Below are positions 27,433 through 63,968 of a DNA stretch of 64,000 nt, one piece after another; position 1 is the stretch's first letter, and every line of letters starts with the position of its first letter. The stretch is from an uncultured Fidelibacterota bacterium (lineage in GTDB: Bacteria > Fidelibacterota > Marinisomatia > Marinisomatales > Marinisomataceae). The DNA is taken from the NCBI GenBank assembly GCA_902526795.1, contig CABZMF010000001.1, forward strand, positions 280,733-344,732, read 5' to 3'. A program made the position numbers and the translations under genes. Below the pieces are notes generated by a model. The model was not told where the DNA came from and did not search any database. It saw only the letters and a program-made list of their open reading frames with translations.

Positions 27433-28411
27433 ATTAGATAGACTAAATTCTAAAATTCAAAAGAAATCTATTTTTATTGAATCTTTGAGAGAAAACATTT
27501 CAAAAGTTATCGTTGGACAAAATGATTTAATTGATAAGATCCTAATTTCTATAATTTCAAATGGTCATATATTACTTGAGGGCGTACCTGGATTAGCAAA
27601 AACTTTAACAATTAACACGGTAGCTAATTTAATAAATGCTGATTTCAAAAGAATTCAATTTACTCCAGATATGCTCCCTTCAGATTTATTAGGTACACTT
27701 ATTTATAATCAAAAGACGGGAGAATTTAACACGAAAAAAGGTCCTATCTTTTCAAATATTATTCTTGCTGATGAAATCAACCGTGCTCCTTCAAAAGTTC
27801 AAAGTGCTTTATTGGAATCTATGCAAGAAAAACAAGTTACAATTGGAGATAACACTTATAAACTATCAAAACCATTTTTAGTATTAGCTACTCAAAATCC
27901 AATTGAACAAGAAGGTACTTACCCTTTACCCGAAGCACAAGTTGATAGATTTATGATGAAGGTAATTATAGATTATCCCTCAATTGATGATGAAAAAGAA
28001 ATCATTCATAGAGCCAATACTCAAACTGATAGTAAAATAAAATCTGTTATAAAAACAAAAACAATTCTAGATGCACAAAATCTTATTAATGATATATACA
28101 TAGATTCAAAAATCTCAGAATACATTTTAAATATCGTTTTTGCTACAAGAAATCCGAAAGAATATAATTTGTCAAAACTTATCGATTTAATTTCATTTGG
28201 AGCATCTCCAAGAGCGTCAATAAATTTAGTTTTAGCATCAAAAGCTAAAGCATTTATTGATGGCAGAGGTTACGTCATTCCCGAAGATATAAAGTATGTT
28301 GCTAAAGATATTTTGAGGCATAGAATTTTACTTACATATGAGGCTGAGGCAGAGGACATTACTTCCGAGGATATTATTGATCAACTTCTTCAAGAAGTTC
28401 CTGTTCCTTAA
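27419..28411 (+). CDS. MoxR-family AAA+ ATPase
   Basis: 'EGVPGLAKT' (Walker A), 'ILADEINRA' (Walker B) and 'ATQNPIEQEGTYPLPEAQVDRF' are present. Confidence 0.93.
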   Translation: MKKNELDRLNSKIQKKSIFIESLRENISKVIVGQNDLIDKILISIISNGHILLEGVPGLAKTLTINTVANLINADFKRIQFTPDMLPSDLLGTLIYNQKTGEFNTKKGPIFSNIILADEINRAPSKVQSALLESMQEKQVTIGDNTYKLSKPFLVLATQNPIEQEGTYPLPEAQVDRFMMKVIIDYPSIDDEKEIIHRANTQTDSKIKSVIKTKTILDAQNLINDIYIDSKISEYILNIVFATRNPKEYNLSKLIDLISFGASPRASINLVLASKAKAFIDGRGYVIPEDIKYVAKDILRHRILLTYEAEAEDITSEDIIDQLLQEVPVP

Positions 28412-28421
28412 TAATTAAACA

Positions 28422-29300
28422 ATGTCAAAAGAAATTCTCAAAAAAGTTCGTCGAATTGAAATAAGAACTAAAAATATCGTTAATGACTTTTTTGGTGGAG
28501 ATTATCACTCAAATTTCAAAGGAAGAGGAATGACTTTTTCTGAAGTAAGAGAATATGTTCCTGGTGATGATGTTAGATCTATTGATTGGAATGTAACAGC
28601 CAGAACTGGAAAACCGCACATTAAAATTTTTGAAGAGGAAAGAGAGCTATCTGTATTAATTCTTATCGACGTTAGCAGTTCTGGAGTTTTTGGTTCTAAA
28701 AAAGACTTAAAAATTGATTTAGGTATCGAAATTGCAGCTATGTTAAGTTTTTCAGCTATTAAAAATAATGATAAAGTTGGACTCGCATTATTCAGTGATA
28801 AAGTTGAAAAATATATTCCACCAAAAAAAGGAAAGAAACATGTCTTAAGACTTATTACTGATATTATGAATCATGATTTTGATAATAGCAATAAACGTAC
28901 TTCAATTAAAAATGCAATTGATTTTGCAAACAAGATATCAAAAAGAAAAAGCGTAATCTTTATAATTTCAGATTTTATAGATGATAATTTTTGGAATGAA
29001 CTAAAATTTTTAAATTTTAAGCATGATGTGGTTGGATTACAGATTTATGATTCTTACGAAAAAAATTTCCCTGATATTGGTCTAATAAACATTCATGACT
29101 CGGAAAGTGGTAATTCTACTTGGATTGATACATCAAGTAAAAAAAATAGAGAGAGATTTAAAAAAAATTCAAATGAGAAGCTTAATAATTTTTCAAAAAA
29201 ATGTAAAAATATTGGTTTTGATTTATTACAAATTAATACAGATGATGATTATATAAAGTTTCTCATGCAATTTTTTAGATCAAGAGCAAAAAGAAGCTAA
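28422..29300 (+). CDS. DUF58-family protein (vWA-like MoxR partner)
   Basis: It has 'VREYVPGDDVRSIDW' and sits directly downstream of moxR, as in Bat operons. Confidence 0.85.
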   Translation: MSKEILKKVRRIEIRTKNIVNDFFGGDYHSNFKGRGMTFSEVREYVPGDDVRSIDWNVTARTGKPHIKIFEEERELSVLILIDVSSSGVFGSKKDLKIDLGIEIAAMLSFSAIKNNDKVGLALFSDKVEKYIPPKKGKKHVLRLITDIMNHDFDNSNKRTSIKNAIDFANKISKRKSVIFIISDFIDDNFWNELKFLNFKHDVVGLQIYDSYEKNFPDIGLINIHDSESGNSTWIDTSSKKNRERFKKNSNEKLNNFSKKCKNIGFDLLQINTDDDYIKFLMQFFRSRAKRS

Positions 29301-30163
29301 TGAAATGTTTTATTTTAATTTCTCTAATTTTTATTTTTTCTTGCCAAGAAAATATAAAAGATCCCAGTATATTTTTCAAAACTTCCCCTGAAGCTACTCA
29401 AATTGGTTATCCAGTCACTCATAACATAACTATTAATGATTTAGGAGATTTATATAGTCTTGATTCAGTTGAATGGGCAGATTCGTCTTTATGGTTGTCT
29501 GATTCTTTAAAAGTTTTTATTAAAGAATCACAAATTGATACTTTTAAAAATTCAATATCTATTAATTATCAAATTACTTTTTGGGATACAGGTACAGTAG
29601 TGATACCACCTTTAAATGCTAATATTAGCTTTCCAGATTCTGTAAGTAGTACGATTTTTAGAACAGACTCATCATTTGTTTATGTATCAACAGTTATCGA
29701 TAGTTCAATGAAGAATATTATTGATGATAAGCCACTTAAAGATATTCAATTTCCAATTGAAAGATTAAAGTTGTTTTCATTGTTTTTAATAATAATTTTT
29801 ATTCTACTTGTTGCTCAATTAATTAGGAAAAGAAACACTAAAAAATTGTTAAATAGAAATTTTTTTAATTTTAATCCAAAATCAAAAGCCTTAAATGACA
29901 TTAAAAAAATTGATTTAACAAAAAATTCTGAAGAATTCTTTTTTGAAATTTCAGAATTACTCAGGAAATATTTCCAAAATAATTTTTATATAATATCTTT
30001 TGAAATGACTTCGTCAGAATTAAAAGAATTTTTTAAAGATAAAGATCTAAATAAATTATTAAATGAGATAGACCAAGTGAAATTTGCCAAAAAAGACCCA
30101 AACTTAGCTCAAAAAAAAGAAATTCTTGTTCTTCTAAAAAAAGTTATAAGAAAACTTCTATAA
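29300..30163 (+). CDS. BatD-like membrane lipoprotein (tentative)
   Basis: It has a lipoprotein signal 'LISLIFIFSC', an extracytoplasmic beta domain, one central TM ('LFSLFLIIIFILLVAQLI') followed by a basic stretch, and a cytoplasmic tail. It follows DUF58. Confidence 0.45.
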   Translation: MKCFILISLIFIFSCQENIKDPSIFFKTSPEATQIGYPVTHNITINDLGDLYSLDSVEWADSSLWLSDSLKVFIKESQIDTFKNSISINYQITFWDTGTVVIPPLNANISFPDSVSSTIFRTDSSFVYVSTVIDSSMKNIIDDKPLKDIQFPIERLKLFSLFLIIIFILLVAQLIRKRNTKKLLNRNFFNFNPKSKALNDIKKIDLTKNSEEFFFEISELLRKYFQNNFYIISFEMTSSELKEFFKDKDLNKLLNEIDQVKFAKKDPNLAQKKEILVLLKKVIRKLL

Positions 30164-40484: not shown

Positions 40485-42872
40485 TTACTCGCATTTAGAC
40501 CAACCGCAATCTTTACAAATTAAGCATCCACCTTCGTTAACAATACCATTTCCATCACACTCAGTGCAGTGCTGGCCATATTCTTTGGCTTGGCTAGTTC
40601 GCGTCAGAGGAGTTTCTTCAGCTATTTCAAACTGGCTTTTTTTTTTACTAGGAGGAGCATCGCCATTGACAAATGTTTCAAGCGCTCTTCCTATGGCATC
40701 AGGCGTTGACAGAATTAGTTGACCGTCTTCCCATGTAGGGTTTGGTCCGCTGATTCCTTTGAGCTGATTGATTATACTATTCGGATCCACGCCGGAACGC
40801 AATGCAAGAGATATTAATCTGCTTATTGCTTCCGTCTGTGCAGCAACTGTTCCACCTGCTTTACCTATTGCAGTAAACACTTCACAAAGGCCATTTTCAT
40901 CTTCATTTACAGTCACATATAAAGTACCATCCCCTGTTCTCATTCGTCTTGTTTTTCCTTCCGTAGTGGATGGACGTGTACGAGCAGTTTTCATTTCTTC
41001 GCTTTCGGAGGATTTTTCTTCGCCTTCAGATGACTTATCATCTGTTATTAGAATACCTTCTCTTGAACCCTCTCTGTACACAGTAATACCTTTGAGATCT
41101 GCCTTGTAGGCCGTCATGTATATGTCTGCTACTGTATTTACTGTTGTTTCCTCCGCAAGGTTTACTGTAGATGAAATTGAGCTATCGATATATTTCTGGA
41201 CAACTCCTTGCATTTTGACTCTAAAAAATGGATCAACATTGTGCGCTGTAACAACATATTTTGGTAAGTTTTCATCTGTTCCAAACATTTCTTTTACCAC
41301 AGGGTGATAAACGGTAAATGTATCAAACTCTTTTCCTAGGCTATCATTCTTTTTTACTTTTCTTTTGTATGATGTTGCAAAAATAGGTTCAACGCCAGAT
41401 GTTACTCTTGCGACAATTGCACCACTTCCTGTTGGGGCTACTGTTGTTAGAGTACAATTTCTGACTCCATGATTTTTAATTTTTGTTTGTAGTTTTTTTG
41501 GGAGATCTTGTACAAAAAGACTCTGTGAATATCCGTCCCAATCAAAATTTGGAAACTGGCCCTTTTCTTTTGCTAGTTCAACACTTGTTTCATATGCTGT
41601 GTCTCGGTGTATTTCCATAATTTTTCCGATAGTCTCAAGTGCTTCATCAGAATCATACTGTATCCCCATTTTAACAAGCATATCACCTAAGCCCAGTATT
41701 CCTAGGCCAACTCTTCTATCATTCTTGGCATTCTGTTTTTGTTCTTCAAGTGCATGTCGATCAAGATTATAATCAATCACATTATCTAAGAATCTGGCTC
41801 CAACCGCTGTAGTTTCTTTGAAATCATCGAAATCGAAATTTCCATTTTGATCTACAAATCTTTCTAAGTTTAATGCACCAAGGTTGCAGCATCCACCATC
41901 TGGTAATGGTTGCTCTGCGCATGGGTTAGTTGAAACTAGAGGACTGCAGTATTCTGCGTTATGATATTTTGTCATTGTATCCCAGAACAGCAAACCGGGC
42001 TCCGCGCTTGCGTGTGCATGTTCGATGATTTTCATCCATAGCTCTTTTGCTTTTACTGTTGTGTATACTTTTCCACCCCACTGTAGATCAAAGTCTGAAT
42101 CTGATTGAACTGCACTCATGAATTCGTCTGTTAATAAAACTGAAATATTAGAGTATTTAACCATATCAATATCACCGGTTTTAATCTCGATAAATTTTTC
42201 AATATCAGGATGATCAACTCTGAGGGTCTGCATATTGGCGCCTCTTCTGCCATGTTGTGCTATTGTGTTAGTGTTTTCACTAAAAAGATTCATAAAACCA
42301 ACAGGACCACAAGAATTTCCACCAGTCCCAAGAATCTCATCTCCACCTGGCCTCAGAATTGATAAATCATGACCACAGCCACCACCATATTTATAGGTCA
42401 TCGCTTCTTCAATGACACAATCATATATGGACTTAATAGAATCGGTTTTGATACCTACAACATAGCAATTGTTTAATGTTGTTGTGATATCTTCACGACC
42501 CGCACCGTGCATAATTCTTCCGCCAGGAACAAATTTAAAATTTTTCAATGCTTCGAAGAATGCTAACTCCCATTTCTTTTGTAGCTTAGGGGTTTTCTCA
42601 ACACTTGCTAATGCCTTTGCCTGACGATTCCATAGGTGCCATGGATGCTTTTCGCCTGGCGCTAAATATTTCATTTCAAGAACGCTTCGACCGAGGTCGT
42701 CTTCTTTATAATAATTCTCTACTGTATATTCTTTTGGACAACCTTCCTCGTTTGTATTGGTATCGATAGATTCCTTGATGTTAAAACCCAAAATTTGATT
42801 CTTGAGATCAGAATCAATCTTCGGATTTTTTTCTGTTTCATTTGGAAAGTTTATTTCAATTGCTTCCGCCAT
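40485..42872 (-). CDS. nrdJ: Class II (adenosylcobalamin-dependent) ribonucleotide reductase
   Basis: 'STNPCAEQPLPDGGCCNLGALNL' carries the active-site Cys/Glu context. The C-terminal Cys-rich tail is 'CTECDGNG...CLICKDCGWSKCE'. Confidence 0.9.
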   Translation of the reverse strand: MAEAIEINFPNETEKNPKIDSDLKNQILGFNIKESIDTNTNEEGCPKEYTVENYYKEDDLGRSVLEMKYLAPGEKHPWHLWNRQAKALASVEKTPKLQKKWELAFFEALKNFKFVPGGRIMHGAGREDITTTLNNCYVVGIKTDSIKSIYDCVIEEAMTYKYGGGCGHDLSILRPGGDEILGTGGNSCGPVGFMNLFSENTNTIAQHGRRGANMQTLRVDHPDIEKFIEIKTGDIDMVKYSNISVLLTDEFMSAVQSDSDFDLQWGGKVYTTVKAKELWMKIIEHAHASAEPGLLFWDTMTKYHNAEYCSPLVSTNPCAEQPLPDGGCCNLGALNLERFVDQNGNFDFDDFKETTAVGARFLDNVIDYNLDRHALEEQKQNAKNDRRVGLGILGLGDMLVKMGIQYDSDEALETIGKIMEIHRDTAYETSVELAKEKGQFPNFDWDGYSQSLFVQDLPKKLQTKIKNHGVRNCTLTTVAPTGSGAIVARVTSGVEPIFATSYKRKVKKNDSLGKEFDTFTVYHPVVKEMFGTDENLPKYVVTAHNVDPFFRVKMQGVVQKYIDSSISSTVNLAEETTVNTVADIYMTAYKADLKGITVYREGSREGILITDDKSSEGEEKSSESEEMKTARTRPSTTEGKTRRMRTGDGTLYVTVNEDENGLCEVFTAIGKAGGTVAAQTEAISRLISLALRSGVDPNSIINQLKGISGPNPTWEDGQLILSTPDAIGRALETFVNGDAPPSKKKSQFEIAEETPLTRTSQAKEYGQHCTECDGNGIVNEGGCLICKDCGWSKCE

Positions 42873-46738: not shown

Positions 46739-49321
46739 ATGTACATGCTAAAAAAACTATTTGTAGTACTTTTGTGTGTTGGTATATCATTTGCTCAACA
46801 TAACCACAGTCATCATAACCATAGCCTTTCTCATAATGAACATGGAGAAGAATATATCAGATGTGCAACAGATGAGCTAGAGCAAGAATTACAGCTTTTA
46901 AGACCAGAGTTTATTGCAGAACGTGACGCACAAATTGAAAAAGCAAGAAAGCTTTTGAGAGAAAACCCTCAATGGAGAACCGATAGCAGTACACAAAATA
47001 CAATATATGTGCCTGTGGTTTTTCATGTTTTATATTTTAATAATGGAGATAATACTTCAGCTTCTCAAATTGGCGCAAATTTTGACCAAATTAATTTAGA
47101 CTTTCAAAATATAAATCCTGATGGCGATGAAATTCCATCAGCCCCAAATCCAAGTGATGCACCCTTCGATCCAGGCATTGATTATAGCCATCAAGCTGTT
47201 AGAGGAACTCACAATGTTGTTTTTGTCGGAGCAGCAGGAGAGACTACGGGAAGTCAACTAATTGAAGGTACTACAATTTTAAGATACCAAATAAATCAAT
47301 CCAGTGTAGGTGGTGTTAGTGATGCGAGCAGTATTGCAGGAAGTACCACTCCTGACCAAAGTTCATGGCCTGGAGGTTCCGGAGGATATAAAAATGGTTA
47401 TCTTAATATTTACCTTGCACCATTAACCGGTGGATTGTTGGGTCAAGCTTATCTTGGTTTTCCTGAGTCTGTTGTTCTTAACGATAGTGTTGGTTCAGTT
47501 GAAAGTCCTGGTACAGCTGGAGGATACAATAGAGGAAGAACTTTAACTCATGAGTTAGGTCATAATTTTACATTTAATCATATTTTTAATTCTAACAACT
47601 GTGGAAATCAACTTTGGAGTGATATCCCTGCTCAATATGTTAACAATCGTGGCGCTAATATCTATGAATGGCCTACTGGAAGTGGAAATTTTTATGGGAG
47701 AGAAGCTGAAAACAGTTGTATTTCTACAAGTGGTAAAGGCGACCAATTTATGAACTACATGGACTATGTATATGATGACCAAATGAGAATGTTTTCTGAG
47801 CAGCAAGCATTAGATGGATATGCATGGGCACAATCAAGAAACTGGGCTCAAGTTGTAAGTGGTGTTAGTACTCAGATTTCATCAAGTGTTTCCTATGCAA
47901 CCTCTGATGATGGGTTTACCGTTGATGTAAACTTTGGAGAACAGGTTTCAGGGTTTACGCAAGATGATTTAGTATTAACTAATGCAATAGTTACAAATTT
48001 CAATGATGCAGATGGAACTAATTTTAGTTTTGATGTAGAAGCTATTGTAGATGGTGAAGTAAAAGTATCAATTGCAGCAAACAGTTGTGTTGGTGTTGAT
48101 TCTGGAAATAGTAATTTTGAATCAAATGAAGTTGTTGTAATTGTAGACAGGGTAGCACCAATAGCTGGATCATTATCAATTGATAATATCCAGGATTCAC
48201 AATATATAACAAAGGCTCCGTCTTTAAACATTTCATTAAATGACTTCACTGATGCTACTAGTGGAGTTGGATTGTATTATGTTTCTGTAGGGCTATCTCC
48301 TCAAGGGCAGGAAATTTTACCATTCACAGCATATTCAGACTCTGGAATAAATTTAAATAATTTAGGTTTGCTTGATTATCAACAATACTATGTTAATGTC
48401 TATGCTCAAGATTTGGTTGGTTTAAATTCTTCGACAGTCAGTTCAACATTTTATTACTTTGGTACTTTACTCGGAGATACGAATAATGACTGGATAATTG
48501 ATTTTGAAGATTATGCAAGTTTCATTTCAAATTTTCCAGGAGTTGATATTGCTCCTGTAACCGGAAGTGCACCATATTTCTTCCCGAACTTTGATGGAGT
48601 TTCTGATGCAAATGATTTAGCAATGTTTGAATCAATGTGGAATTGGTCAATATCTGAAAATGGCAGAACAGTACCAAATTATACAGTTCAAGGCACAGCT
48701 CCATATTTGAGAATATTAAATGGGCAATTAATCGTTAGGTTCCCGCTGGCTGCATCAACAGCTCAGTTTTATTTTGAATACGACACTGAAAAATATTTGA
48801 TTGACTATTTATCAAGTAACCTAAGTAGTAATGTTGTTTTAAGTGCAAATAGTCAAGAGGATGGAATAATTCAAGTTGAAGCAGCAGACTATCGAACTGA
48901 TAGAACAAGTCCATTGGAGATGGCGTTTAGTTTCCAAAACTTGACAGATAACTATGAGTTTATGAGAGTTAGTTATTCTTCATATAGTAAGTCCAATCTT
49001 CTTGTATCTGAAGGATATAACTTAATTCAAACTGCACCATCAACATATCGTTTGTCTCAAAGTTACCCTAATCCATTCACTGAAGGTGGTACAACTATTG
49101 AATTTGATATGCCAGTTACTGAGCAAATTACAATGGTAATACTTGATGTTAGAGGAAGAGTTGTGAGAACATTAATTAAAAATGAGCAGCGATTTGGTTA
49201 TCAATCTGTAGTTTGGGATGCTAAAAATGATGATGGTGATAAAGTTAGTAGTGGTGTCTATTTTTATCAGATAAGATCTAACAACTTTAATGCTGTTGGC
49301 AAACTTGTATTTGTTAAGTAG
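46739..49321 (+). CDS. Secreted multidomain zinc metalloprotease (M43/pappalysin-cytophagalysin-like) with a T9SS-type C-terminal sorting domain
   Basis: It has a signal peptide, a His-rich 'HNHSHHNHSLSHNEH' stretch, the zinc site 'HELGHNFTFNH' with 'QFMNYMDY', a dockerin-like 'GDTNNDWIIDFEDY' and the C-terminal 'YPNPFTEGGTTIEF...SGVYFYQI...KLVFVK'. Confidence 0.8.
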   Translation: MYMLKKLFVVLLCVGISFAQHNHSHHNHSLSHNEHGEEYIRCATDELEQELQLLRPEFIAERDAQIEKARKLLRENPQWRTDSSTQNTIYVPVVFHVLYFNNGDNTSASQIGANFDQINLDFQNINPDGDEIPSAPNPSDAPFDPGIDYSHQAVRGTHNVVFVGAAGETTGSQLIEGTTILRYQINQSSVGGVSDASSIAGSTTPDQSSWPGGSGGYKNGYLNIYLAPLTGGLLGQAYLGFPESVVLNDSVGSVESPGTAGGYNRGRTLTHELGHNFTFNHIFNSNNCGNQLWSDIPAQYVNNRGANIYEWPTGSGNFYGREAENSCISTSGKGDQFMNYMDYVYDDQMRMFSEQQALDGYAWAQSRNWAQVVSGVSTQISSSVSYATSDDGFTVDVNFGEQVSGFTQDDLVLTNAIVTNFNDADGTNFSFDVEAIVDGEVKVSIAANSCVGVDSGNSNFESNEVVVIVDRVAPIAGSLSIDNIQDSQYITKAPSLNISLNDFTDATSGVGLYYVSVGLSPQGQEILPFTAYSDSGINLNNLGLLDYQQYYVNVYAQDLVGLNSSTVSSTFYYFGTLLGDTNNDWIIDFEDYASFISNFPGVDIAPVTGSAPYFFPNFDGVSDANDLAMFESMWNWSISENGRTVPNYTVQGTAPYLRILNGQLIVRFPLAASTAQFYFEYDTEKYLIDYLSSNLSSNVVLSANSQEDGIIQVEAADYRTDRTSPLEMAFSFQNLTDNYEFMRVSYSSYSKSNLLVSEGYNLIQTAPSTYRLSQSYPNPFTEGGTTIEFDMPVTEQITMVILDVRGRVVRTLIKNEQRFGYQSVVWDAKNDDGDKVSSGVYFYQIRSNNFNAVGKLVFVK

Positions 49322-50368: not shown

Positions 50369-53300
50369 TTACAGATCGTATCCTACACTAAGTGAAGAGA
50401 ATCTACCCATTAGTGGCATTAGAAATCCTTCTCTGTGAACAACATCTGTAATGTTGTCTATATTTAATCCAACTGATAAACCATCTACAGATTTAACATC
50501 CCAGTTAGCATTAACACTAACTGTGTAGAAACCTGGTATATGACCTGAATTGTCTTGCCATCCTTCTGCAAAGAAAGAATCTTGATATCTTAAATTTGCT
50601 CCGTATGAGACATTATCATCAGTATGACTAAACCCAGCACCTAATTTGAATTGAGGAGTGTTCATATATACAGTTTCCTCAACACCTTCGAACATTGAAG
50701 TTACTTCCTCATCACTAAGATAAGAACCATTAATAGTGAAGTTCCAATCTGAAGATGGGAAATAAGTTAATGTAGCTTCAATACCATTAAGGTCTAATGG
50801 TTCGGTAAGCTGTTTATAACCCATAATCCAATTACCACCATAGATATTTTGTTCTGGAGTAATTGCACCAATTGGTACTTGACCTATACCAAGTAACATC
50901 TGAGCAGCTAATTCATCTGCACCAGTACCATTTCCATTACCACCCAATGCTGGAGCATCCATAACTGAAATTAAACCGGTAAGATTTGCATCACCAGCCA
51001 TTCCTGTCATTAATGCAGCAACATAACTTTGTGCATCACCAGCAACTGAAACTGAACCTGATAATGATGTTTTTAGTCCAGTTACATAATTATCAACATT
51101 TAATTTATAAACATCTACAGATAATGCCATGTTGTCTGAAACTAAACCATTATATCCAATCTCTGTTTGTGTCCAAGTTGTTTCTTGAATTTTTGGAATA
51201 TCTGGATAGTTAGTTGAAGGGTCAACTACATTGAATCCTAAATCTGTCACAACATTACCAAAACTACTTGGCATTGCAGTTGCAGCTAAACCTAGAAGTG
51301 CCTGTGCAGCAGCACCAGCTTGTGCAGCTCCATAAGCAGCAGCGCCTGCAACATCTCCTGTTGCAGCTGCATAAGCAGCTCCTACAGCTTGTCCATAACC
51401 GCCTACAAGTGCAGCACCATTATCACTAGCTAAAAACAATCCTGCAGTGATAGGAGCCCATACACCAAATGCGGCAGCATTAATTGTACTATTATTAAGA
51501 GCATAATTAGTATTTACATCTAGCCCTAGTGCTGTAGACCAATTTGATCTAAATGTTGGAGTACCATTGGCATCTCTATCATAAGTCCAACCAGTTGTAG
51601 TTGAACCCATAGCTTTAATCTGGAAATCTGGATTGAATGGTAACACTACTCCAGTTGGATTAGTTGCGCTAGTAAAATCAATTCCAAAAACATTACCGTA
51701 TACGAAGTCTCTACGAACAGCAATATCTAGATTTTTAGTAAAGTTTCCAGGAAGGTCAATATTTTGACCATATGTTAAACGAAAACTTCCTCTAACGTCA
51801 TTTGGTGACCAAACCATTCCAAACTTAGGAGCAAAAACACCATCAGTTCCTATATCTTCTAAATAGTTATTTTGATCGTATCTACCAGTAGCTACAACTT
51901 TAAATTCGTCACTAAATTTCTTTTCATATGAGTAGTAAAGTCCCATATTATCAAAGTTATCAATATCCTCGTTTTTACCATTAATAGTTCCATTTGTTTC
52001 TGGAGTTCTGCTTAATACGTCTAAGCCTAATAAAAGCGATTGGTCATTTTTTAATTCAAGAGCATGTTGAAGTTGAAATGCAGTATTTTTAGACTGATCG
52101 TAAATAATATTTCCTGTTGAAAGGTTATATGTAGTTTTCTGATCATTTACATTTGAGAATAAGTTAACAAATAAGTTACCTCCTAAAATGTCTTGTCTAA
52201 AATAAGAAACTTGCATTTGATACAACCATGCATCGTCTGAATGTGCTCTTCCAATACCGGTAAATTCTAATGCACTAATATTTCCAGCTCTTAAATTAAC
52301 TGTAAGATTAGATTTTAGATCAGGACGAAACACAGTCTTTGAATCAAAGAATGTTGCTTCTGGTGAAAAAGGTTCATCTGCAGAAGCAGTATTAGGTGAT
52401 CCACCAACTGGGTCATTATATCCACCACGTGTATAATCTACATATGGATAAGTTACAGTTTGTTCACCTCTTCTAATTAATAGTGGTTCAAAATAAGTAT
52501 GACCGTCTAAAGCAGCGTCAGCTTGAGTTCTAGGCATATTAGATGCCCAGTCATCAAAAGTAGTATGAGTAACTGTAAATCTTGTAGCAGCTCTACTACC
52601 AATTTGACCTGCAAAACGACCATATAATTTCAAATAATTTCTTTCACCAGCAGTTACTTCAACTCTGGGACCTTGATTGAAAGGAGATTTTGTAAACATG
52701 GAAATAACTCCTTGTTGGGTATCTGGACCATACATAGGTGGCGCAGGACCTCTTAAAACCTCAACTCTTTCAATATCATCGTCTCCAGGAGCCATGAACT
52801 GTAGTAATTGAGCATTAATAACTGGAGCACGTGACCATCTGTTATCAACAACAGCATGAACCGCACCAGTAAAAATACCATTAAATCCTCTTACTGTCAT
52901 ATTTTGTGATTCTAGACCAGTTTTCATTGTTTCAATTCCAGCTTTGTTAGCTAAAATATCTACAAAGTAAACAGCATTTCGTGCTGATAATTCATCAGCT
53001 GAAATAACTTCAACACTAGCAGGGGCCTCAGTTATCAACTCTCTTTTAAGAGAAGCTGATACAACAACTTGATCAAGAACTAAATTTCCTTTTTCAAGAG
53101 TCAAATTAACTGAACTAGAAGCACCACCACTTACTGTAACTGAAGCACTAGCATCATCATATCCAATAAAAGATGCAGTAACAGTGTAAGTACCATCACC
53201 CAGGCCTGAAATTGAGAATGATCCATCTTGATTAGATGAAGCTCCAGCTTCAGTACCTTCAACAGCTACATTTGCTCCAGCTAATGCGTTTCCTTCATCA

Positions 53301-53392
53301 TCAGAAACAGTTCCGACAACACTTTGCGCTATAAGCGATGTAACTGAAAAAACTAGGGCAAATGTATATTTAAAACTCTGTTTAAATTTCAT
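50369..53392 (-). CDS. TonB-dependent outer-membrane receptor with an N-terminal carboxypeptidase-regulatory-like domain
   Basis: It has a signal peptide, 'VVGTVSDDEGNALAGANVAVEG...YTVTASFIGY', a plug ('VEVLRGPAPPMYGPDTQQGVISMFTK') and a long beta-barrel. Length is 1007 aa. Confidence 0.88.
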   Translation of the reverse strand: MKFKQSFKYTFALVFSVTSLIAQSVVGTVSDDEGNALAGANVAVEGTEAGASSNQDGSFSISGLGDGTYTVTASFIGYDDASASVTVSGGASSSVNLTLEKGNLVLDQVVVSASLKRELITEAPASVEVISADELSARNAVYFVDILANKAGIETMKTGLESQNMTVRGFNGIFTGAVHAVVDNRWSRAPVINAQLLQFMAPGDDDIERVEVLRGPAPPMYGPDTQQGVISMFTKSPFNQGPRVEVTAGERNYLKLYGRFAGQIGSRAATRFTVTHTTFDDWASNMPRTQADAALDGHTYFEPLLIRRGEQTVTYPYVDYTRGGYNDPVGGSPNTASADEPFSPEATFFDSKTVFRPDLKSNLTVNLRAGNISALEFTGIGRAHSDDAWLYQMQVSYFRQDILGGNLFVNLFSNVNDQKTTYNLSTGNIIYDQSKNTAFQLQHALELKNDQSLLLGLDVLSRTPETNGTINGKNEDIDNFDNMGLYYSYEKKFSDEFKVVATGRYDQNNYLEDIGTDGVFAPKFGMVWSPNDVRGSFRLTYGQNIDLPGNFTKNLDIAVRRDFVYGNVFGIDFTSATNPTGVVLPFNPDFQIKAMGSTTTGWTYDRDANGTPTFRSNWSTALGLDVNTNYALNNSTINAAAFGVWAPITAGLFLASDNGAALVGGYGQAVGAAYAAATGDVAGAAAYGAAQAGAAAQALLGLAATAMPSSFGNVVTDLGFNVVDPSTNYPDIPKIQETTWTQTEIGYNGLVSDNMALSVDVYKLNVDNYVTGLKTSLSGSVSVAGDAQSYVAALMTGMAGDANLTGLISVMDAPALGGNGNGTGADELAAQMLLGIGQVPIGAITPEQNIYGGNWIMGYKQLTEPLDLNGIEATLTYFPSSDWNFTINGSYLSDEEVTSMFEGVEETVYMNTPQFKLGAGFSHTDDNVSYGANLRYQDSFFAEGWQDNSGHIPGFYTVSVNANWDVKSVDGLSVGLNIDNITDVVHREGFLMPLMGRFSSLSVGYDL

Positions 53393-57780: not shown

Positions 57781-58929
57781 TTGAGAGTTCCTCTAAAGCT
57801 TAGATTCTTCTATTTACTTTCATTCTTTTTAAAGAATAATAAAACTCCAAATTTTTCTATTGATATTCCTATAAATGTTCGAGATGGTGAAGAGTTTCCT
57901 ATTAAAAACCTTGAAAATTTTTTACGAGAAAGAAACTTTGAGAATGATAGTCTAATTCTCAAGCAATTTCCTAGCGGATATTCAAATTTAACTTATTTTC
58001 TAAAGTCATCAACTAAAGAATTTGTTCTAAGAAGACCCCCTTATGGTGCCAAAAGCTTAAAAGGCGGCCATGATATGCTTCGAGAATATAATGTATTAAG
58101 AAATTTAAAATCTCAATTCAATAAAGTTCCTGAAGTACATTTATATTGTGATAAAACAGACGTCATTGGAGCTCCATTTTACATAATGGATAGAGTTGAA
58201 GGATATATCATTAGGCCCAACTTACAACATAAAGATTCTCCAGGTAGAGAAGTAATTAAAAATATTTCAAATTCTTTGGTTTCAACGCTTGTTGAATTAC
58301 ATAATGTTGATATAAATAAAGCAAATCTAAACAGTCTCGGAAATGTTGAAGGTTATATAAAAAGACAGATAGATGGATGGATTAAAAGATATAATCATTC
58401 AAAAACTGACTCAATCGCAGATATGGATTTTATTGCATCTTGGCTTGACGAAAATCAACCATCAGAAGTAAAGGGTTCAATAATACATAATGATTTCAAG
58501 TATGACAACTTAGTCTTAGATAGAGAAAATTTTTCAAAAATTATTGCTGTTTTGGATTGGGAAATGGCAACAATTGGTGATCCTTTTATGGACCTAGGAA
58601 CTACACTCGGATACTGGGTAGATAAAAATGATCTTCCAGAATTAAAACTTTTTCAATTAAGTGCAACAACATTAGATGGAAATCCCTCAAGAGAGGGTAT
58701 TTTAGATATGTATGAAAGAAAATCTGGTAAAACAATACCCAACCCTGTCTTTTATTATGTTTATGGTTTATTTAAAATAGCAGTTATTGCGCAGCAAATT
58801 TATTTTAGATATAAAAAAGGTTATACAAAGGACAGAAGATTTAGCTTACTTAACTTAGCTGTAATGTCGCTATCGGTAATGGCTAAACAGGCAATAGTGA
58901 AAAAAAGGTTAAGTGATTTATTTGAATAA
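57781..58929 (+). CDS. Phosphotransferase (APH/ChoK kinase-like) family protein, ACAD10/11 N-domain type. TTG start, uncertain.
   Basis: 'PSGYSNLTY', 'FVLRRPP', the catalytic loop 'IIHNDFKYDNLVL' and 'VLDWEMATIGDPFMDL' are present. Confidence 0.82.
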   Translation: MRVPLKLRFFYLLSFFLKNNKTPNFSIDIPINVRDGEEFPIKNLENFLRERNFENDSLILKQFPSGYSNLTYFLKSSTKEFVLRRPPYGAKSLKGGHDMLREYNVLRNLKSQFNKVPEVHLYCDKTDVIGAPFYIMDRVEGYIIRPNLQHKDSPGREVIKNISNSLVSTLVELHNVDINKANLNSLGNVEGYIKRQIDGWIKRYNHSKTDSIADMDFIASWLDENQPSEVKGSIIHNDFKYDNLVLDRENFSKIIAVLDWEMATIGDPFMDLGTTLGYWVDKNDLPELKLFQLSATTLDGNPSREGILDMYERKSGKTIPNPVFYYVYGLFKIAVIAQQIYFRYKKGYTKDRRFSLLNLAVMSLSVMAKQAIVKKRLSDLFE

Positions 58930-58958
58930 AAAAAAGGCCTTCATTTGAAGGCCTTTTT
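58928..58958. terminator. Bidirectional rho-independent terminator between the kinase-like gene and proteorhodopsin
   Basis: AAAAAAAAGGCCTTCATTTGAAGGCCTTTTT. Confidence 0.85.
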
Positions 58959-58974
58959 AGTAAAAATGAATTGA

Positions 58975-59658
58975 TTATTTTGTATCCATCTTAGCAGCAG
59001 CGTAAACAATCATACCAATAAGAATTTTATTTACAAAATCAGCTAAATTGTAAACTTGATTAGTTAGATCCATATCAACTCCACCTGTAGTAAAGTACCC
59101 AAGGAAATAACCTATAGGATAGATTGCCCATCCAAATGTTACAATTTTTTTCATGCCATCAAATGCGTAAGCAGCAGCAGCATTTTTTGAACCTGCATTA
59201 ACTTCAGCAGCTTCACCTGACCAGATTTCTCTTAACATTAATCCCCAGCAAAGCATACCGCCAGCAAAACCAACTACTGGTGTAACTAAAGCGTCTGCAT
59301 TTGCAACATTTACTTCACCTAAGTAACCAAAAATTAACATTAAAACTGAAAAACCTAGTAATCTATTAAGTACACCAGCACTTACAGCTGTGACAGCAGC
59401 AAGTACGATGTAGAATTCTACCATTTGAAGAGGAACAGTGATTAACCAATCAATGTATCTAATTGATACAACATCAGTTGCATCTAAATTACCTCTCATA
59501 TAGTAGTAATGAACCGCAGCGATAAAGCAAACCATACCTGAAACTGTCAATGCAGTTTTCCATTTTGGATTAACATTATCTCTTTCTAGCCATAAGAAAA
59601 GACCAGTTGCGAGTAAAGCCATATTTGTTACAAAAAATGTAAACTCTGTAAAGCCCAT
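58975..59658 (-). CDS. Proteorhodopsin (DTE-motif light-driven proton pump, Gln at the spectral tuning site, so blue-absorbing type)
   Basis: It has seven hydrophobic helices. Helix C reads 'RYIDWLITVPLQMVEFY' and helix B 'AVHYYYMRG'. 'GWAIYPIGYF' is present. Helix G 'YNLADFVNKILIG' carries the Schiff-base Lys. A GAGGT SD lies 9 nt upstream. Confidence 0.93.
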   Translation of the reverse strand: MGFTEFTFFVTNMALLATGLFLWLERDNVNPKWKTALTVSGMVCFIAAVHYYYMRGNLDATDVVSIRYIDWLITVPLQMVEFYIVLAAVTAVSAGVLNRLLGFSVLMLIFGYLGEVNVANADALVTPVVGFAGGMLCWGLMLREIWSGEAAEVNAGSKNAAAAYAFDGMKKIVTFGWAIYPIGYFLGYFTTGGVDMDLTNQVYNLADFVNKILIGMIVYAAAKMDTK

Positions 59659-59736
59659 ACTTTATACCTCATATTTTTGTTATATTATTGTAAATATAAA
59701 GCAAAAATTATTTAAAACTCAAATTATTTTAAAAAT

Positions 59737-60333
59737 ATGTTAAAAAGAGAATTTCAGGAAATATATGGTAAAATAAATCTATTGATGAAAAAAGCTTTAG
59801 AAAATTCAGCCCATCCCTATCGAACATTTTCGTTGGCATCTTTAGATAAAGAAATGCCAAAATTAAGGACAGTTGTTCTAAGAGAATTTTCATTTGAAAA
59901 CTTTTTTCTTGATTGCCATTCAGATATAAGGAGTCCTAAGGTTATTGAGTTTAAAAAAAATAATAAATTTTCAGCTCTATTTTATTCATCTGAAGAAAAA
60001 ATACAATTAAGGTTTAACGGTAAAGTAGAAATTTTTCATAATAACTCTATTACTAAAAAAAGGTGGAAATTTATAACACCTTCTTCAAGAAGATGTTACA
60101 TGGGTCCTTTTAGTCCGTCAGATCACCTTGAAGAATATCACTCAAATATTCCTGAAAACGTTAAATTTGAAAATCCGTCCAAGAAAGAGTCTGACAAAGG
60201 CTATGAAAATTTTGTTGTTATTCGATGTCATTTTGATGAACTAGATTATTTAAAATTAAAGTATAGCGGTCATTTAAGATGCAAACTAATTTTTGAAAAT
60301 AAAAATATTAATGGCGTTTGGTTGGCTCCATAG
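59737..60333 (+). CDS. Pyridoxamine 5'-phosphate oxidase (PdxH)-family FMN-binding protein, divergent
   Basis: 'YRTFSLASLDKEMPKLRTVVLREF' and 'KIQLRFNGKVE' are present. The C-terminal 'WLAP' resembles the PdxH C-terminus. Confidence 0.55.
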   Translation: MLKREFQEIYGKINLLMKKALENSAHPYRTFSLASLDKEMPKLRTVVLREFSFENFFLDCHSDIRSPKVIEFKKNNKFSALFYSSEEKIQLRFNGKVEIFHNNSITKKRWKFITPSSRRCYMGPFSPSDHLEEYHSNIPENVKFENPSKKESDKGYENFVVIRCHFDELDYLKLKYSGHLRCKLIFENKNINGVWLAP

Positions 60334-60335
60334 TT

Positions 60336-60446
60336 ATGAAAAGTACTATTATTTTAATGACTATCTTTGTGGTTTTAGGAACAGTATTTAATTTTTTAAC
60401 AATAAAGCGTTTTTTAAAGAAAAGAAAAAATGAAGAAAATTAAATC
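60336..60446 (+). CDS. Candidate 36-aa single-TM micro-ORF
   Basis: Translation is MKSTIILMTIFVVLGTVFNFLTIKRFLKKRKNEEN. It starts 2 nt after the preceding stop and overlaps the rhodanese start by 17 nt. It is not in the ORF track. Confidence 0.35.
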
Positions 60447-60801
60447 AATCCTATTTTTTTTAGTATTAACTTTTTCTATGATTTTTTGTTCAAAAAATTC
60501 CGACGTTGTATCAATGTATGAATTTCAAAATAACATTTTAAATGAAAAATCTATAGTTCTTGATGTTAGAACAGAAGAGGAATATTTTGGGCCTCTTGGG
60601 CACATTGATGGTGCAATTTTGATACCTATTGATGAACTAGGAAATAGACTTAATGAATTAGAAATTTACAAAGAAGAAACTATTTATGTTGTTTGTAGAA
60701 GTGGAAATAGATCCAACTTTGGAAAAAATATTTTAAATGAAAATAATTTCAAAGCTGTAAATGTTGACGGTGGAATGTTAGAATGGAAGACGGATTTATG
60801 A
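60430..60801 (+). CDS. Rhodanese-domain lipoprotein (single-domain sulfurtransferase-like)
   Basis: It has the lipobox 'TFSMIFCS' and the active-site loop 'VVCRSGNRS'. Confidence 0.8.
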   Translation: MKKIKSILFFLVLTFSMIFCSKNSDVVSMYEFQNNILNEKSIVLDVRTEEEYFGPLGHIDGAILIPIDELGNRLNELEIYKEETIYVVCRSGNRSNFGKNILNENNFKAVNVDGGMLEWKTDL

Positions 60802-60902
60802 GAGACAAGAAAGAAATAGTTCTTTTTTATAAAAAGTCATTTTTAACAATTCTTATAATTTTAATAATACTTTTAATCCCTTTCTTTTTTTATGCGAATT
60901 AA
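60798..60902 (+). CDS. Candidate 34-aa single-TM micro-ORF
   Basis: Translation is MRDKKEIVLFYKKSFLTILIILIILLIPFFFYAN. Its ATG overlaps the rhodanese TGA (ATGA), and its stop overlaps the next gene's start. It is not in the ORF track. Confidence 0.35.
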   Translation: MRDKKEIVLFYKKSFLTILIILIILLIPFFFYAN

Positions 60903-61527
60903 GCAAAAGTATATTATTGATTTTGCAAAGGGAGTCACATGGCTTTTAGTTATCAGTCTAATTTTTTTATATAATCAGACTGAAAATCTAACTGCATGGA
61001 TATATTTTTGCCTACATGGATCTTATGGTTTAATGTGGGTTTCAAAAAGTTATATTTTCCCGGATAAAACCTGGGAAAGCAGAGTGGGTATTCCATATGC
61101 ATTACTGATTTTGTTTGGTTTAATATTATATTGGTCGCCAGCTTTCATTATTAATATTACAGCTCACCAGGCTTCATTAGAAATGATCGTTTTAGCAATT
61201 TTTATTTTCATAATAGGTGCATTCTATCATTTTGCTTCAGATATGCAAAAATTCATTTTTTTAAAATATAAATCAGGTTTAATAACAGATGGATTCTGGA
61301 AACAATGTAGGCACCCAAATTATTTTGGAGAGCTTTTAATTTATTTAAGTTTTATAATTCTTGTACTTGAGTCCTCATTATGGTGGATTCCAACTTTAAT
61401 CCTCGGTTTGTTTATCGTTTCAGTATGGATTCCTAATATGATAGCGATAGAAAAGTCTTTATCAAGATTTGACGAGCATGAATCTTATAAGAAAAATACC
61501 GCATTAATAATCCCATATATCTTATAA
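60892..61527 (+). CDS. DUF1295/steroid-5-alpha-reductase-ICMT-clan polytopic membrane protein
   Basis: 'LITDGFWKQCRHPNYFGELLIY' is present. Confidence 0.7.
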   Translation: MRIKQKYIIDFAKGVTWLLVISLIFLYNQTENLTAWIYFCLHGSYGLMWVSKSYIFPDKTWESRVGIPYALLILFGLILYWSPAFIINITAHQASLEMIVLAIFIFIIGAFYHFASDMQKFIFLKYKSGLITDGFWKQCRHPNYFGELLIYLSFIILVLESSLWWIPTLILGLFIVSVWIPNMIAIEKSLSRFDEHESYKKNTALIIPYIL

Positions 61528-61913
61528 TGAAATCTGAAATTATTATCTTTTACGATGGGATTTGTATTCTATGTTCTAATGCTATCAATTTTGTCCAGAA
61601 AAATGACCAAAAAAATTTATTTTTTTTTAGTCCACTACAATCTAACTATGCAAAGAAGACTATTGATAAAAAGTTTATTAGAGAATTAAATACTGTTGTT
61701 GTAATGAAAGATGGAAATCTCTTTACCAACTCCAAAGCTGCTTTTATTGTCTTGGATGCTTTAAATCATCCAATAAGATATTTTAAATTTATTGTACCAA
61801 CTTTCATTGCAGATATTGTCTATAAATTCGTTGCCGGAAGAAGATATAGCTGGTTTGGAAAAAAAGAAGAATGTATTTTTCCAGTAGGTAATTCAAAATT
61901 TTTAATTGATTAA
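61527..61913 (+). CDS. DCC-family thiol-disulfide oxidoreductase (DUF393)
   Basis: It has the N-terminal 'IIFYDGICILCSNAINF' (DGxCxxC). Confidence 0.75.
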   Translation: MKSEIIIFYDGICILCSNAINFVQKNDQKNLFFFSPLQSNYAKKTIDKKFIRELNTVVVMKDGNLFTNSKAAFIVLDALNHPIRYFKFIVPTFIADIVYKFVAGRRYSWFGKKEECIFPVGNSKFLID

Positions 61914-62323
61914 TGAAAAAAGAGCAATTTTCAAGATTTTATAAAATGGAAACTAGATGGTATGACGAAGACATGCTTGGTCATATTAACCATGGTACAG
62001 CCGTTGCTTATTTTGAAGATGCTCGTATAAGACATGCTCATGATATTGGTCTATTCCCATACAATAATGATAAATTTCCATTTATTGTTGCATCAATGAC
62101 ATTCAATTTTTTAAGACAAATTAAACATCCAAAGAATATTACAGTTGGATTAAGAGTTTCAAGAATTGGAGGTAAAAGTTTTGATTACGAATATGGATTA
62201 TTTATGGAAAATGATGATGAATGTGCAATTTCATGTCAAATGACAATGGTGTGTTTTGATTTTATAAATCAACACAGCGTAAAAGTCTTTGAAGAAGTTA
62301 AAAAAGAATTTAAAGGGGAATAA
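61913..62323 (+). CDS. Acyl-CoA thioesterase, 4HBT/YbgC-like hot-dog fold
   Basis: 'RWYDEDMLGHINHGTAVAYFEDAR' is present. Length is 136 aa. Confidence 0.75.
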   Translation: MKKEQFSRFYKMETRWYDEDMLGHINHGTAVAYFEDARIRHAHDIGLFPYNNDKFPFIVASMTFNFLRQIKHPKNITVGLRVSRIGGKSFDYEYGLFMENDDECAISCQMTMVCFDFINQHSVKVFEEVKKEFKGE

Positions 62324-62325
62324 AA

Positions 62326-63069
62326 ATGCAAATAAATATCGAAAATGAAATTAAAACTATTAAAATGGGTGATAAAGGTCCCAATCTTTTAAGCGTCGAA
62401 AGGGCTAATGAAATAATTTCAGAGCTTAATAAAAATGATTGTAAGGCAGTTATAATATTAGGAAATGAAAAGGTTTTCAGTGCTGGATTAAATCTTAAAC
62501 ACCTACAAAAGGCCAAAGAGGCGAGTGAAGTATCTTTGATTTTCAAAACACTGAGGGAGTTATTGGTAGCATCAAGAAAGTTTCCAGGTCCTGTCATAAG
62601 TATTGTTTCAGGACATGCAATTGCAGGTGGTTGCCTTTTAGCTCTTGCTTCAGATTACAGATATGGTGTTCATGGAATGCATAGAATGGGTCTTAATGAA
62701 ATGGCGATTGGTATTGATCTTCCGCCAGATATGTTATCAATAATTGCACATACTATAAGTAAAAATCATTTATTTGAGGTTGCTACACAATGTAGAATGT
62801 ATACACCTACGGAAGCACTTAAAAAGGGTCTTTTACATGAAATCGTAGGCTATAGATTTACAAGTAAAAAGAAAGCAACTTTAAAAGCTTTAGATAAGGC
62901 AAAGAAACTTGCAAAGTTTTACATTGATGCTGGCGAACCTTTTGTTAGGTTAAAGCAATCTCTTATGCATGATACAGATTTTGATTATCAAATTCTAATT
63001 GATAACTGGTTTAGTTCAGAAACTCAGGACAAAATCAACTCAGTCATGTCTTCCTTAAACAAAAAATGA
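62326..63069 (+). CDS. Enoyl-CoA hydratase/isomerase (crotonase) family protein
   Basis: 'VFSAGLNLKHL' and 'GHAIAGGCLLALASDYR' are oxyanion-hole segments. Confidence 0.8.
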   Translation: MQINIENEIKTIKMGDKGPNLLSVERANEIISELNKNDCKAVIILGNEKVFSAGLNLKHLQKAKEASEVSLIFKTLRELLVASRKFPGPVISIVSGHAIAGGCLLALASDYRYGVHGMHRMGLNEMAIGIDLPPDMLSIIAHTISKNHLFEVATQCRMYTPTEALKKGLLHEIVGYRFTSKKKATLKALDKAKKLAKFYIDAGEPFVRLKQSLMHDTDFDYQILIDNWFSSETQDKINSVMSSLNKK

Positions 63070-63968
63070 AAATAGTTGTTGCAGGTGGCACAGGTTTTAT
63101 CGGAAAAAAAATTGTTCGATCTTTAACTGGAAAAGATTTTACAGTTTTTGTATTAACCAGAAATATTAAAAAACATAAAAGATTATCAACTGAAAATATA
63201 AAGCTCATTGACTGGAATACAGTTAATCCTGCGCTTTTGAAAGATGTTAAAATTCTTATAAAGTTAAATGGAGAAAAAGTTGATCAGTTTTGGACAAACT
63301 CTGTAAAAAATAAAATTTTTGAAAGCAGAATTGAAACAACAAAAATGCTTTATGATTTTTGTATAAAAAATGAAATTATTCCTCAAAAGTTAATAAATGC
63401 ATCCGCAGTTGGTATTTATGCATTAAATAGTGCTAAATATAATTTTTCTTCAGATGAAAAATCACAAAAAGGAGATACTTTTTTATCAAAGGTTTGTGAC
63501 GCAAATGAACAAAGCACAAAAATTTTTAATAACTTTAAAAATACTAATATAATTCAACTTAGAATAGGTGTAGTTTTAAGAAAGAAAATAATTTCCTTAT
63601 TATCAATTAATTTATTCTTATCATTGCCAATTCCTGGGAAAAAAAATAATTATTTTCCTTGGGTTCATGTTGATGATATTGTTGGTTTTATAGAATATAG
63701 TATTGATAATAATCTTAGCGGTGTTTTCAATTTAGTTGGTCCTGAACTAACAACTCATCAAATATTTTTTAAGGCAATTTTAAATAACACAAAAAGCTTC
63801 ATATCTTGGGTTATTTTTCTACCAGATTGTATTACAAAATTATTTTTTAGAAGTATGAGTGAAATGTTTCTTTTTGGTCCAAAAATAGAACCTCTTAGAA
63901 CACTTAGAAGTGGATATAATTATAAATTTTCATCTTTATCAGATGCTTTATCTAATTTGTCTGAATAA
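63066..63968 (+). CDS. TIGR01777/SDR39U1-like NAD-dependent epimerase family protein (DUF1731 C-terminus)
   Basis: 'IVVAGGTGFIGKK' and the C-terminal 'GPKIEPLRTLRSGYNYKF' are present. Confidence 0.75.
   Translation: MKIVVAGGTGFIGKKIVRSLTGKDFTVFVLTRNIKKHKRLSTENIKLIDWNTVNPALLKDVKILIKLNGEKVDQFWTNSVKNKIFESRIETTKMLYDFCIKNEIIPQKLINASAVGIYALNSAKYNFSSDEKSQKGDTFLSKVCDANEQSTKIFNNFKNTNIIQLRIGVVLRKKIISLLSINLFLSLPIPGKKNNYFPWVHVDDIVGFIEYSIDNNLSGVFNLVGPELTTHQIFFKAILNNTKSFISWVIFLPDCITKLFFRSMSEMFLFGPKIEPLRTLRSGYNYKFSSLSDALSNLSE

Follow-up and report, generated by a model that had tools for sequence, protein, structure and literature searches.

A Proteorhodopsin Gene on the Minus Strand

The window analyzed here is a stretch of 64,000 nucleotides (positions 280,733 to 344,732 of contig CABZMF010000001.1, assembly GCA_902526795.1), which carries a proteorhodopsin open reading frame (ORF) on its minus strand at positions 58975..59658. 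The ORF starts with ATG and encodes 227 amino acids beginning with MGFTEFTFFVTNMALLATG. Pfam family Bac_rhodopsin (PF01036) matched residues 4-222 at 3.6e-37, covering profile positions 3-221 of 224. When all PDB sequences were searched with phmmer, the best match was the blue-absorbing proteorhodopsin Med12 (4jq6, E = 2.1e-53), followed by the green-absorbing proteorhodopsin (GPR; 7b03, 8cnk and 2l6x, E ~3e-52), both over the full length. Flotillin-associated rhodopsins (9r21, 9r22 and 9r23; 1e-45 to 1e-48), blue-absorbing HOT75 and then more distant pumps such as ESR, GR and xanthorhodopsin ranked below these. In global alignment the protein is 48% identical to GPR and, across the entire 7TM core, 50% identical to Med12.

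The same alignment assigns the diagnostic residues to GPR positions (native numbering) as H50=H75, R67=R94, D70=D97, W71=W98, T74=T101, Q78=L105, E81=E108, W177=W197, Y180=Y200, D207=D227, N210=N230 and K211=K231. Helix C (RYIDWLITVPLQMVEFY, residues 67-83) holds R67 and a complete DTE motif, with the acceptor D70, T74 and the donor E81. H50, the partner of the acceptor Asp in helix B, lies in HYYYMRG (residues 50-56), and the Schiff-base lysine K211 is found together with D207 and N210 in the string YNLADFVNK, which overlaps NLADFVNKILIG (residues 204-215). At the position of the green/blue switch the protein has Q78, which aligns with L105 of GPR and with the Gln of Med12; the helix C of Med12 is nearly identical to that of the window protein, with Q in the same column (RYIDWLITVPLQIIEFY). 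The original prediction, made from the letters of the window alone, had named the Asp acceptor, Thr, Glu donor, Gln, helix-B His and Schiff-base Lys. All of these aligned with solved proteorhodopsins and no mis-assignment of the Lys or the D/T/E residues was found.

It had also described a protein that starts in helix A and has no cleavable leader, and this holds. Seven hydrophobic segments are present, of which the first begins at residue 3-6. An in-frame TAA is located two codons 5' of the ATG and therefore an N-terminal extension is not possible. Since residue 3 aligns with GPR residue 28, the protein lacks a signal peptide as well as the extracellular N-tail. The coding sequence is under purifying selection, as the comparison with single-amplified genome (SAG) AG-899-G06 gave 22 synonymous and 1 nonsynonymous codon differences and the comparison with Tara scaffolds gave 6-8 synonymous and 0 nonsynonymous differences.

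Host, Distribution and Variation Within the Clade

Relatives were sought in a collection of 5.8 billion proteins, from which the best 120 were listed (P0001-P0120), and in a genome scan with one genome per GTDB species, which returned 20 loci. The identical protein (P0001) occurs on 86 contigs of the collection. A variant with a single change (P0002, I182L), present on 82 contigs, bears the name ‘proteorhodopsin [uncultured bacterium]’; variants with 99% identity are named ‘MAG: bacteriorhodopsin [Candidatus Neomarinimicrobiota bacterium]’. Six Tara Oceans scaffolds have the same gene order; one of them (TARA_SAMEA2621859_METAG-scaffold_84) matches the final 15 kb of the window at 99.4% identity. 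From the 20 GTDB-species loci, 16 are titled Marinimicrobia/Neomarinimicrobiota, three ‘uncultured bacterium’ and one, on a 5.5-kb contig, ‘Gammaproteobacteria’. Every locus aligned to the window is colinear with it.

Epipelagic Marinimicrobia with streamlined genomes are known to carry proteorhodopsin and to express it highly in surface water (Hawley et al., 2017, PMC5688066; Getz et al., 2018, PMC6143742), and several clades acquired it independently (PMC6143742). The gene is thus already known, as a catalogued and ordinary blue-tuned proteorhodopsin of Marinimicrobia (SAR406). Beyond correct annotation this matters little, since it is published knowledge that this abundant uncultured lineage of the surface ocean has a standard blue-tuned proton pump. 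The original prediction described the gene correctly and overstated its interest, as the sequence was already public and both the leaderless form and the Gln are typical of the clade.

This typicality is seen in the 120 closest proteins, where the tuning site is Q in 53 and L in 66. The donor-site E is present in all 119 proteins with a recognizable helix-C motif, and all full-length members lack a leader. The Q forms start with M(G/D/E)FT(E/T/S)FTFF and have an N-tail of 5 residues; the L forms have a hydrophilic N-tail of 15-28 residues. Q and the missing leader are therefore clade characters and not peculiarities of the window gene. Three exceptions (P0045, P0051 and P0053), all on short contigs, have the N-terminal part of another proteorhodopsin, which in P0045 includes a signal peptide. 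Starting from the conserved RYIDWL motif, P0045 and the window protein are identical. These three may be assembly chimeras or natural recombinants.

Signals for Expression of a Single Gene

The Shine-Dalgarno core GAGG (59667..59670, minus strand) is located 8 nt 5' of the ATG. Most related loci keep GAGGTATA or AGAGGTATA at this place, and four have the variants CGAGGTAATA and GGGGTATT. In the window the core precedes 14 of 61 genes (23%), compared with 7.6% in random 17-mers, so that it is a minority feature that the rhodopsin gene has in common with dnaK and the gene for a TonB-dependent receptor, among others.

A promoter-like element, TTGAGT-18-TATATT (59693..59722, minus strand), lies within the divergent intergenic region of 78 nt upstream of the gene. 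With DNA as rich in AT as here, a scan with the sigma-70 consensus by itself finds no more sites than expected by chance (5 vs 6.0). Of 17 related loci that were compared, however, 13 have the element TTGAGT...TATATT (TTTGAGTTTTAAATAATTTTTGCTTTATATT), although the cassettes there are only ~71-85% identical. In the other four loci (L007, L009, L022 and L033), TATATT and AATTTAACAA are kept and the upstream region is otherwise different. Further downstream, AATTTAACAA (AATATAACAA in the window) and a Shine-Dalgarno sequence of the GAGGTATA type are found in nearly all related loci, with variants in the same four. This conservation across lineages speaks for a genuine promoter and for a transcript that is monocistronic. 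The upstream region as a whole (59659-59736, with equivalents in L018-L037) is strongly conserved, and better so than many coding flanks.

At its 3' end the gene faces a convergent gene of the APH family. The ends of the two genes (APH stop at 58929, proteorhodopsin stop at 58975) are 45 nt apart, and this gap is occupied by a bidirectional intrinsic-terminator hairpin with a 12-bp stem (58931..58958), which is common to both. The folding energies for the minus and plus strands are -17.0 and -17.5 kcal/mol (z = -4.7 and -4.5, respectively), and 0 of 200 shuffled sequences were as stable. On the proteorhodopsin strand, eight U in a row follow the hairpin.

Exchange of the Rhodopsin Cassette Between Species

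Comparison with related loci revealed a recombined tract of ~870 nt (58925..59790). It spans the terminator, the proteorhodopsin ORF and the intergenic region, and extends into the PNPOx-like gene as far as its first ~50 nt. In 60-nt bins the tract is 93-100% identical to SAG AG-899-G06 (L018) and to metagenome-assembled genome (MAG) GCA_045560245.1 (L011), two genomes that were produced independently. The breakpoints are sharp, with identity falling abruptly to 63-88% on both sides. Overall, the cassette is 97% identical between the window and L018/L011 and the flanks are 70-83% identical, which indicates a recent allelic replacement. The flanking genes of L018 and L011 are closest to those of L024 and L025 (81-96%, mostly at least 88%), whereas their rhodopsin cassettes are only 83-84% identical to these two loci, as against 97% to the window, whose flanks are 75-80% identical to those of L018 and L011. 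A second, independent case was found in L024 (9940-10840) and L030, with cassettes that are 99-100% identical and flanks that are about 75-86% identical.

The simplest explanation is that a self-contained cassette has repeatedly been replaced by homologous recombination at a conserved locus in related Marinimicrobia species. Such exchange is in line with the mobility known for proteorhodopsin genes, and it carries the conclusion of independent acquisition (PMC6143742) to a finer scale. It is the only point that is mildly new here, and it leaves the identity of the gene unchanged. A rhodopsin allele that moves between species at a fixed locus, together with its promoter and terminator, would let color variants spread independently of the genome background. 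The TonB-dependent receptor gene at 50369-53392 is also mosaic, being 92-93% identical to L011, L019 and L020 and 68-72% identical to L018, L023, L024 and L025, while its neighboring genes stay at ~73-84% identity.

Other Genes in the Window

The rhodopsin gene belongs to a small minority with respect to orientation, since 58 of the 61 genes in the window are on the plus strand. The other two minus-strand genes encode a class II ribonucleotide reductase (40485-42872) and the TonB-dependent receptor (50369-53392). Summed gene lengths amount to 97.8% of the window (overlaps counted twice), G+C content is 30.8%, and scans of the 64 kb for tRNA and Rfam families gave no matches. Plus-strand genes include a type IX secretion system (T9SS)-tail protease (46739-49321; Por_Secre_tail and a weak M43 match) and a MoxR/DUF58-VWA (Bat-like) module found with Pfam (27419-29300). 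ORFs of 354, 399 and 287 amino acids (10620-11684, 26233-27432 and 29300-30163, respectively) have no Pfam match, and the latter two flank the MoxR/DUF58-VWA module. This setting is as the original prediction had described it, with a monocistronic rhodopsin gene that has its own Shine-Dalgarno sequence and shares a hairpin with a convergent kinase-like gene, only three minus-strand genes, a T9SS protease and a Bat-like module. It had further suggested a host of the Fibrobacterota-Chlorobiota-Bacteroidota (FCB) type, which is correct, as the gene occurs in single-cell and metagenome-assembled genomes of Marinimicrobia/Neomarinimicrobiota.

Divergent from the rhodopsin gene, on the plus strand at 59737-63968, are genes for PNPOx-like, rhodanese, DUF1295, DCC1-like thiol-disulfide oxidoreductase, 4HBT thioesterase, enoyl-CoA hydratase and YfcH/DUF1731 SDR proteins. 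Their order is unchanged in the related loci with listed gene calls. Families like these recur in photo-oxidative-stress regulons elsewhere. Two related loci (L007, 8536-9246; L009, 8539-9249) have an additional gene between the PNPOx-like and rhodanese genes, which encodes a membrane protein of 236 amino acids of the FA_hydroxylase family (PF04116). It occurs in green and blue sister lineages, and the window has a 96-nt spacer instead (60334-60429). The NCBIfam scan gave no name to this protein. The PF04116 superfamily includes carotene hydroxylases and a carotenoid link is conceivable.

Source of Retinal

None of the 61 window proteins had a Pfam match to phytoene synthase, phytoene desaturase, lycopene cyclase, Blh/BCD or RPE65-type families, and so the window has no linked photosystem cluster (PR-crtEIBY-blh). 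As a query for tblastn we used a bona fide Blh that adjoins a rhodopsin on a Polymorphobacter plasmid. The best hit in the six-frame window had E = 8.9, and no match at E <= 1 was obtained in 35 Marinimicrobia rhodopsin loci with at most 10 kb of flank on each side, although tblastn is insensitive at the distances found within the Blh family. In relatives, the downstream 10 kb encode sigma-70, MAPEG, Der, MFS and malate synthase proteins, and neither crt nor blh. The absence of blh and crt homologs from the window had been predicted correctly, but it is weak evidence: related contigs reach 440-730 kb, the 64-kb window is therefore a small fraction of the genome, and local absence is uninformative. 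In several marine lineages such as SAR11, proteorhodopsin and retinal-synthesis genes are unlinked.

The window does contain dxs and ispH of the methylerythritol phosphate (MEP) pathway. ORFs of 491, 323 and 382 amino acids at 17.2-22.4 kb were considered as crtI/crtB/crtY and rejected, as the genes there encode a PNPOx-UbiA/MenA-like fusion, PrfB, LysS and LolC/E-type permeases. The fusion protein (17200-18675, 491 amino acids) combines PNPOx_N (FMN-binding) with a UbiA/MenA-like prenyltransferase and scores below the NCBIfam cut-offs for MenA. The literature that we searched, including the two Marinimicrobia genome papers (PMC5688066, PMC6143742), says nothing about retinal or carotenoid genes of Marinimicrobia, and a search for newly described retinal pathways yielded nothing relevant. 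Some bacteria carry a rhodopsin but none of the known retinal genes, and at least one of these nevertheless makes retinal (PMC7734400).

Proposed Function and Alternative Explanations

Based on directly observed features (sequence, residues, gene organization, host, conservation and purifying selection), the gene very probably encodes a blue-absorbing DTE proteorhodopsin, a retinal-binding, light-driven outward proton pump of epipelagic, genome-streamlined Marinimicrobia (SAR406). Pigment formation, color, pumping and topology are inferred, the functional steps from what is known of the proteorhodopsin family. Transcription would start at the gene's own conserved sigma-70-like promoter, cover this gene only and end at the hairpin that serves the convergent APH gene as terminator, too; translation would start from the GAGG Shine-Dalgarno sequence. 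Helix A, starting from about residue 3-6, may act as a reverse signal-anchor that leaves an N-tail of ~5 residues outside, which is consistent with a K/R-rich A-B loop (ERDNVNPKWK) inside. All-trans-retinal, which must be supplied by genes elsewhere in the genome or by the environment, would form a Schiff base with K211. After photoisomerization the proton would pass to D70, tuned by H50 and held in a counter-ion complex with R67/D207, after which E81 would reprotonate the Schiff base. Q78 is predicted to set the absorption maximum near 490 nm, matching the blue light of the open ocean. Outward proton pumping could in this way supplement respiration in an oligotroph.

Several observations weigh against this interpretation. 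No NCBIfam model matches the rhodopsin, and the literature that we searched held no biochemical data for any Marinimicrobia proteorhodopsin, including the window protein. The predicted color depends on a single residue, Q78. Furthermore, no retinal-synthesis gene was found in the 64 kb or within ~10 kb on either side of the gene in the 35 loci, so that holoprotein formation in this cell is presumed.

A green-absorbing pump, in which other residues of the pocket offset the tuning switch in spite of Q78, seems improbable. The identity to characterized blue proteorhodopsins is only ~50%, which would leave room for such an effect, but the helix C of Med12 is nearly the same and also has Gln at this position, and the clean split of the clade into Q and L forms is as expected of a functional color switch. 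Even harder to reconcile with the data is a non-pumping paralog, i.e., a sensory or flotillin-associated-type rhodopsin that signals or regulates instead of energizing the membrane, and we consider it very unlikely. Flotillin-associated rhodopsins are among the better PDB matches, and short leaderless N-termini have been reported for non-pumping DTT-T rhodopsins of deep-water SAR11 (PMC5864233). These non-pumpers have DTT-T, however, and the window protein has the complete DTE motif with the carboxylic donor E81, as well as H50 and D207. Green and blue pumps outscore the flotillin-associated rhodopsins. Neither the window nor its relatives have an adjoining flotillin, transducer or signaling gene; the flotillin/Band_7 family was found neither among the 61 window genes with Pfam nor among the neighboring genes of relatives. 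A sensory rhodopsin is also not what the presence of the donor E81 and a monocistronic gene with its own promoter and terminator would suggest.

The alternative with the most in its favor concerns the chromophore and not the protein. The apoprotein could be functional only occasionally or never, if this streamlined lineage has lost all retinal synthesis and needs scavenged retinal or an undescribed pathway. No crt, blh or carotenoid-cleavage gene was found in the 64 kb or around the gene in the 35 related loci, both genome papers are silent on such genes, and other bacteria combine a rhodopsin with a lack of known retinal genes. On the other hand, the window covers a small part of the genome and need not include unlinked genes, dxs and ispH are present, and strong purifying selection (a 22:1 ratio of synonymous to nonsynonymous changes) together with the repeated spread of the cassette speaks for a protein in use. 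All in all, we regard a largely idle apoprotein as possible but rather unlikely, and prefer the functional blue-absorbing pump. A related and tentative proposal is that of a blue-proteorhodopsin Marinimicrobia lineage without known retinal-synthesis genes anywhere in the genome, which lives on scavenged retinal or an undescribed pathway and repeatedly exchanges the cassette among co-occurring species. The exchange in this proposal is supported by the evidence given above; genome-wide absence taken separately is possible but rather unlikely. Whether streamlined cells synthesize their own retinal bears on the share of oceanic rhodopsin phototrophy that depends on a shared chromophore.

Comparison With Known Rhodopsins

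Among the solved structures, Med12 (4jq6) and HOT75 (4kly, 4knf) have the DTE motif, Q105, H75, R94, D227 and K231 in common with the window protein. The window protein differs from them in that it starts at helix A, has a D-E loop that is 6 residues longer (the VANADALVTP region) and a B-C loop that is 2 residues shorter. Med12 and HOT75 presumably come from proteobacteria and have a cleavable signal peptide and an N-tail. The green proteorhodopsin of SAR86 EBAC31A08 (2l6x, 7b03, 8cnk) has the same fold and proton-transfer residues as the window protein, but it has L105 in the place of Q78 and 25 extra N-terminal residues (signal peptide plus tail). The flotillin-associated rhodopsins (9r21-9r23) belong to the proteorhodopsin superclade too. 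They have DTT, DTL or DNI motifs and an adjoining flotillin gene; the window protein, in contrast, has the DTE motif and no flotillin neighbor. An arrangement with a rhodopsin directly upstream of a gene with a flotillin domain was seen on plasmid NZ_CP011481.1 of Hoeflea sp. IMCC20628 (L016, 7899-10346).

Closer to the window gene is a green-tuned (L105) sister clade of Marinimicrobia (e.g., P0066 and P0099; GCA_028037475.1), which is 70-75% identical, occupies the same locus and is likewise DTE and leaderless. It differs by the L at the tuning site, a longer N-tail (MYVINLMGMDPSTLTG...) and the extra FA_hydroxylase-family gene that adjoins the rhodopsin. Closest are the Marinimicrobia proteorhodopsins of epipelagic clades, with public copies in SAG AG-899-G06 (contig CACBFQ010000002.1) and MAG GCA_045560245.1, among others. 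These encode the same protein with 0-2 amino acid differences, also without a leader, and have the same flanking genes in the same order, with APH and ACAD genes among those on one side and PNPOx-like, rhodanese, DUF1295, DCC1-like, 4HBT, ECH and SDR genes on the other. Nothing of substance sets the window protein apart from these Marinimicrobia proteorhodopsins. AG-899-G06 is another species than the window genome and nevertheless has a 97% identical cassette.

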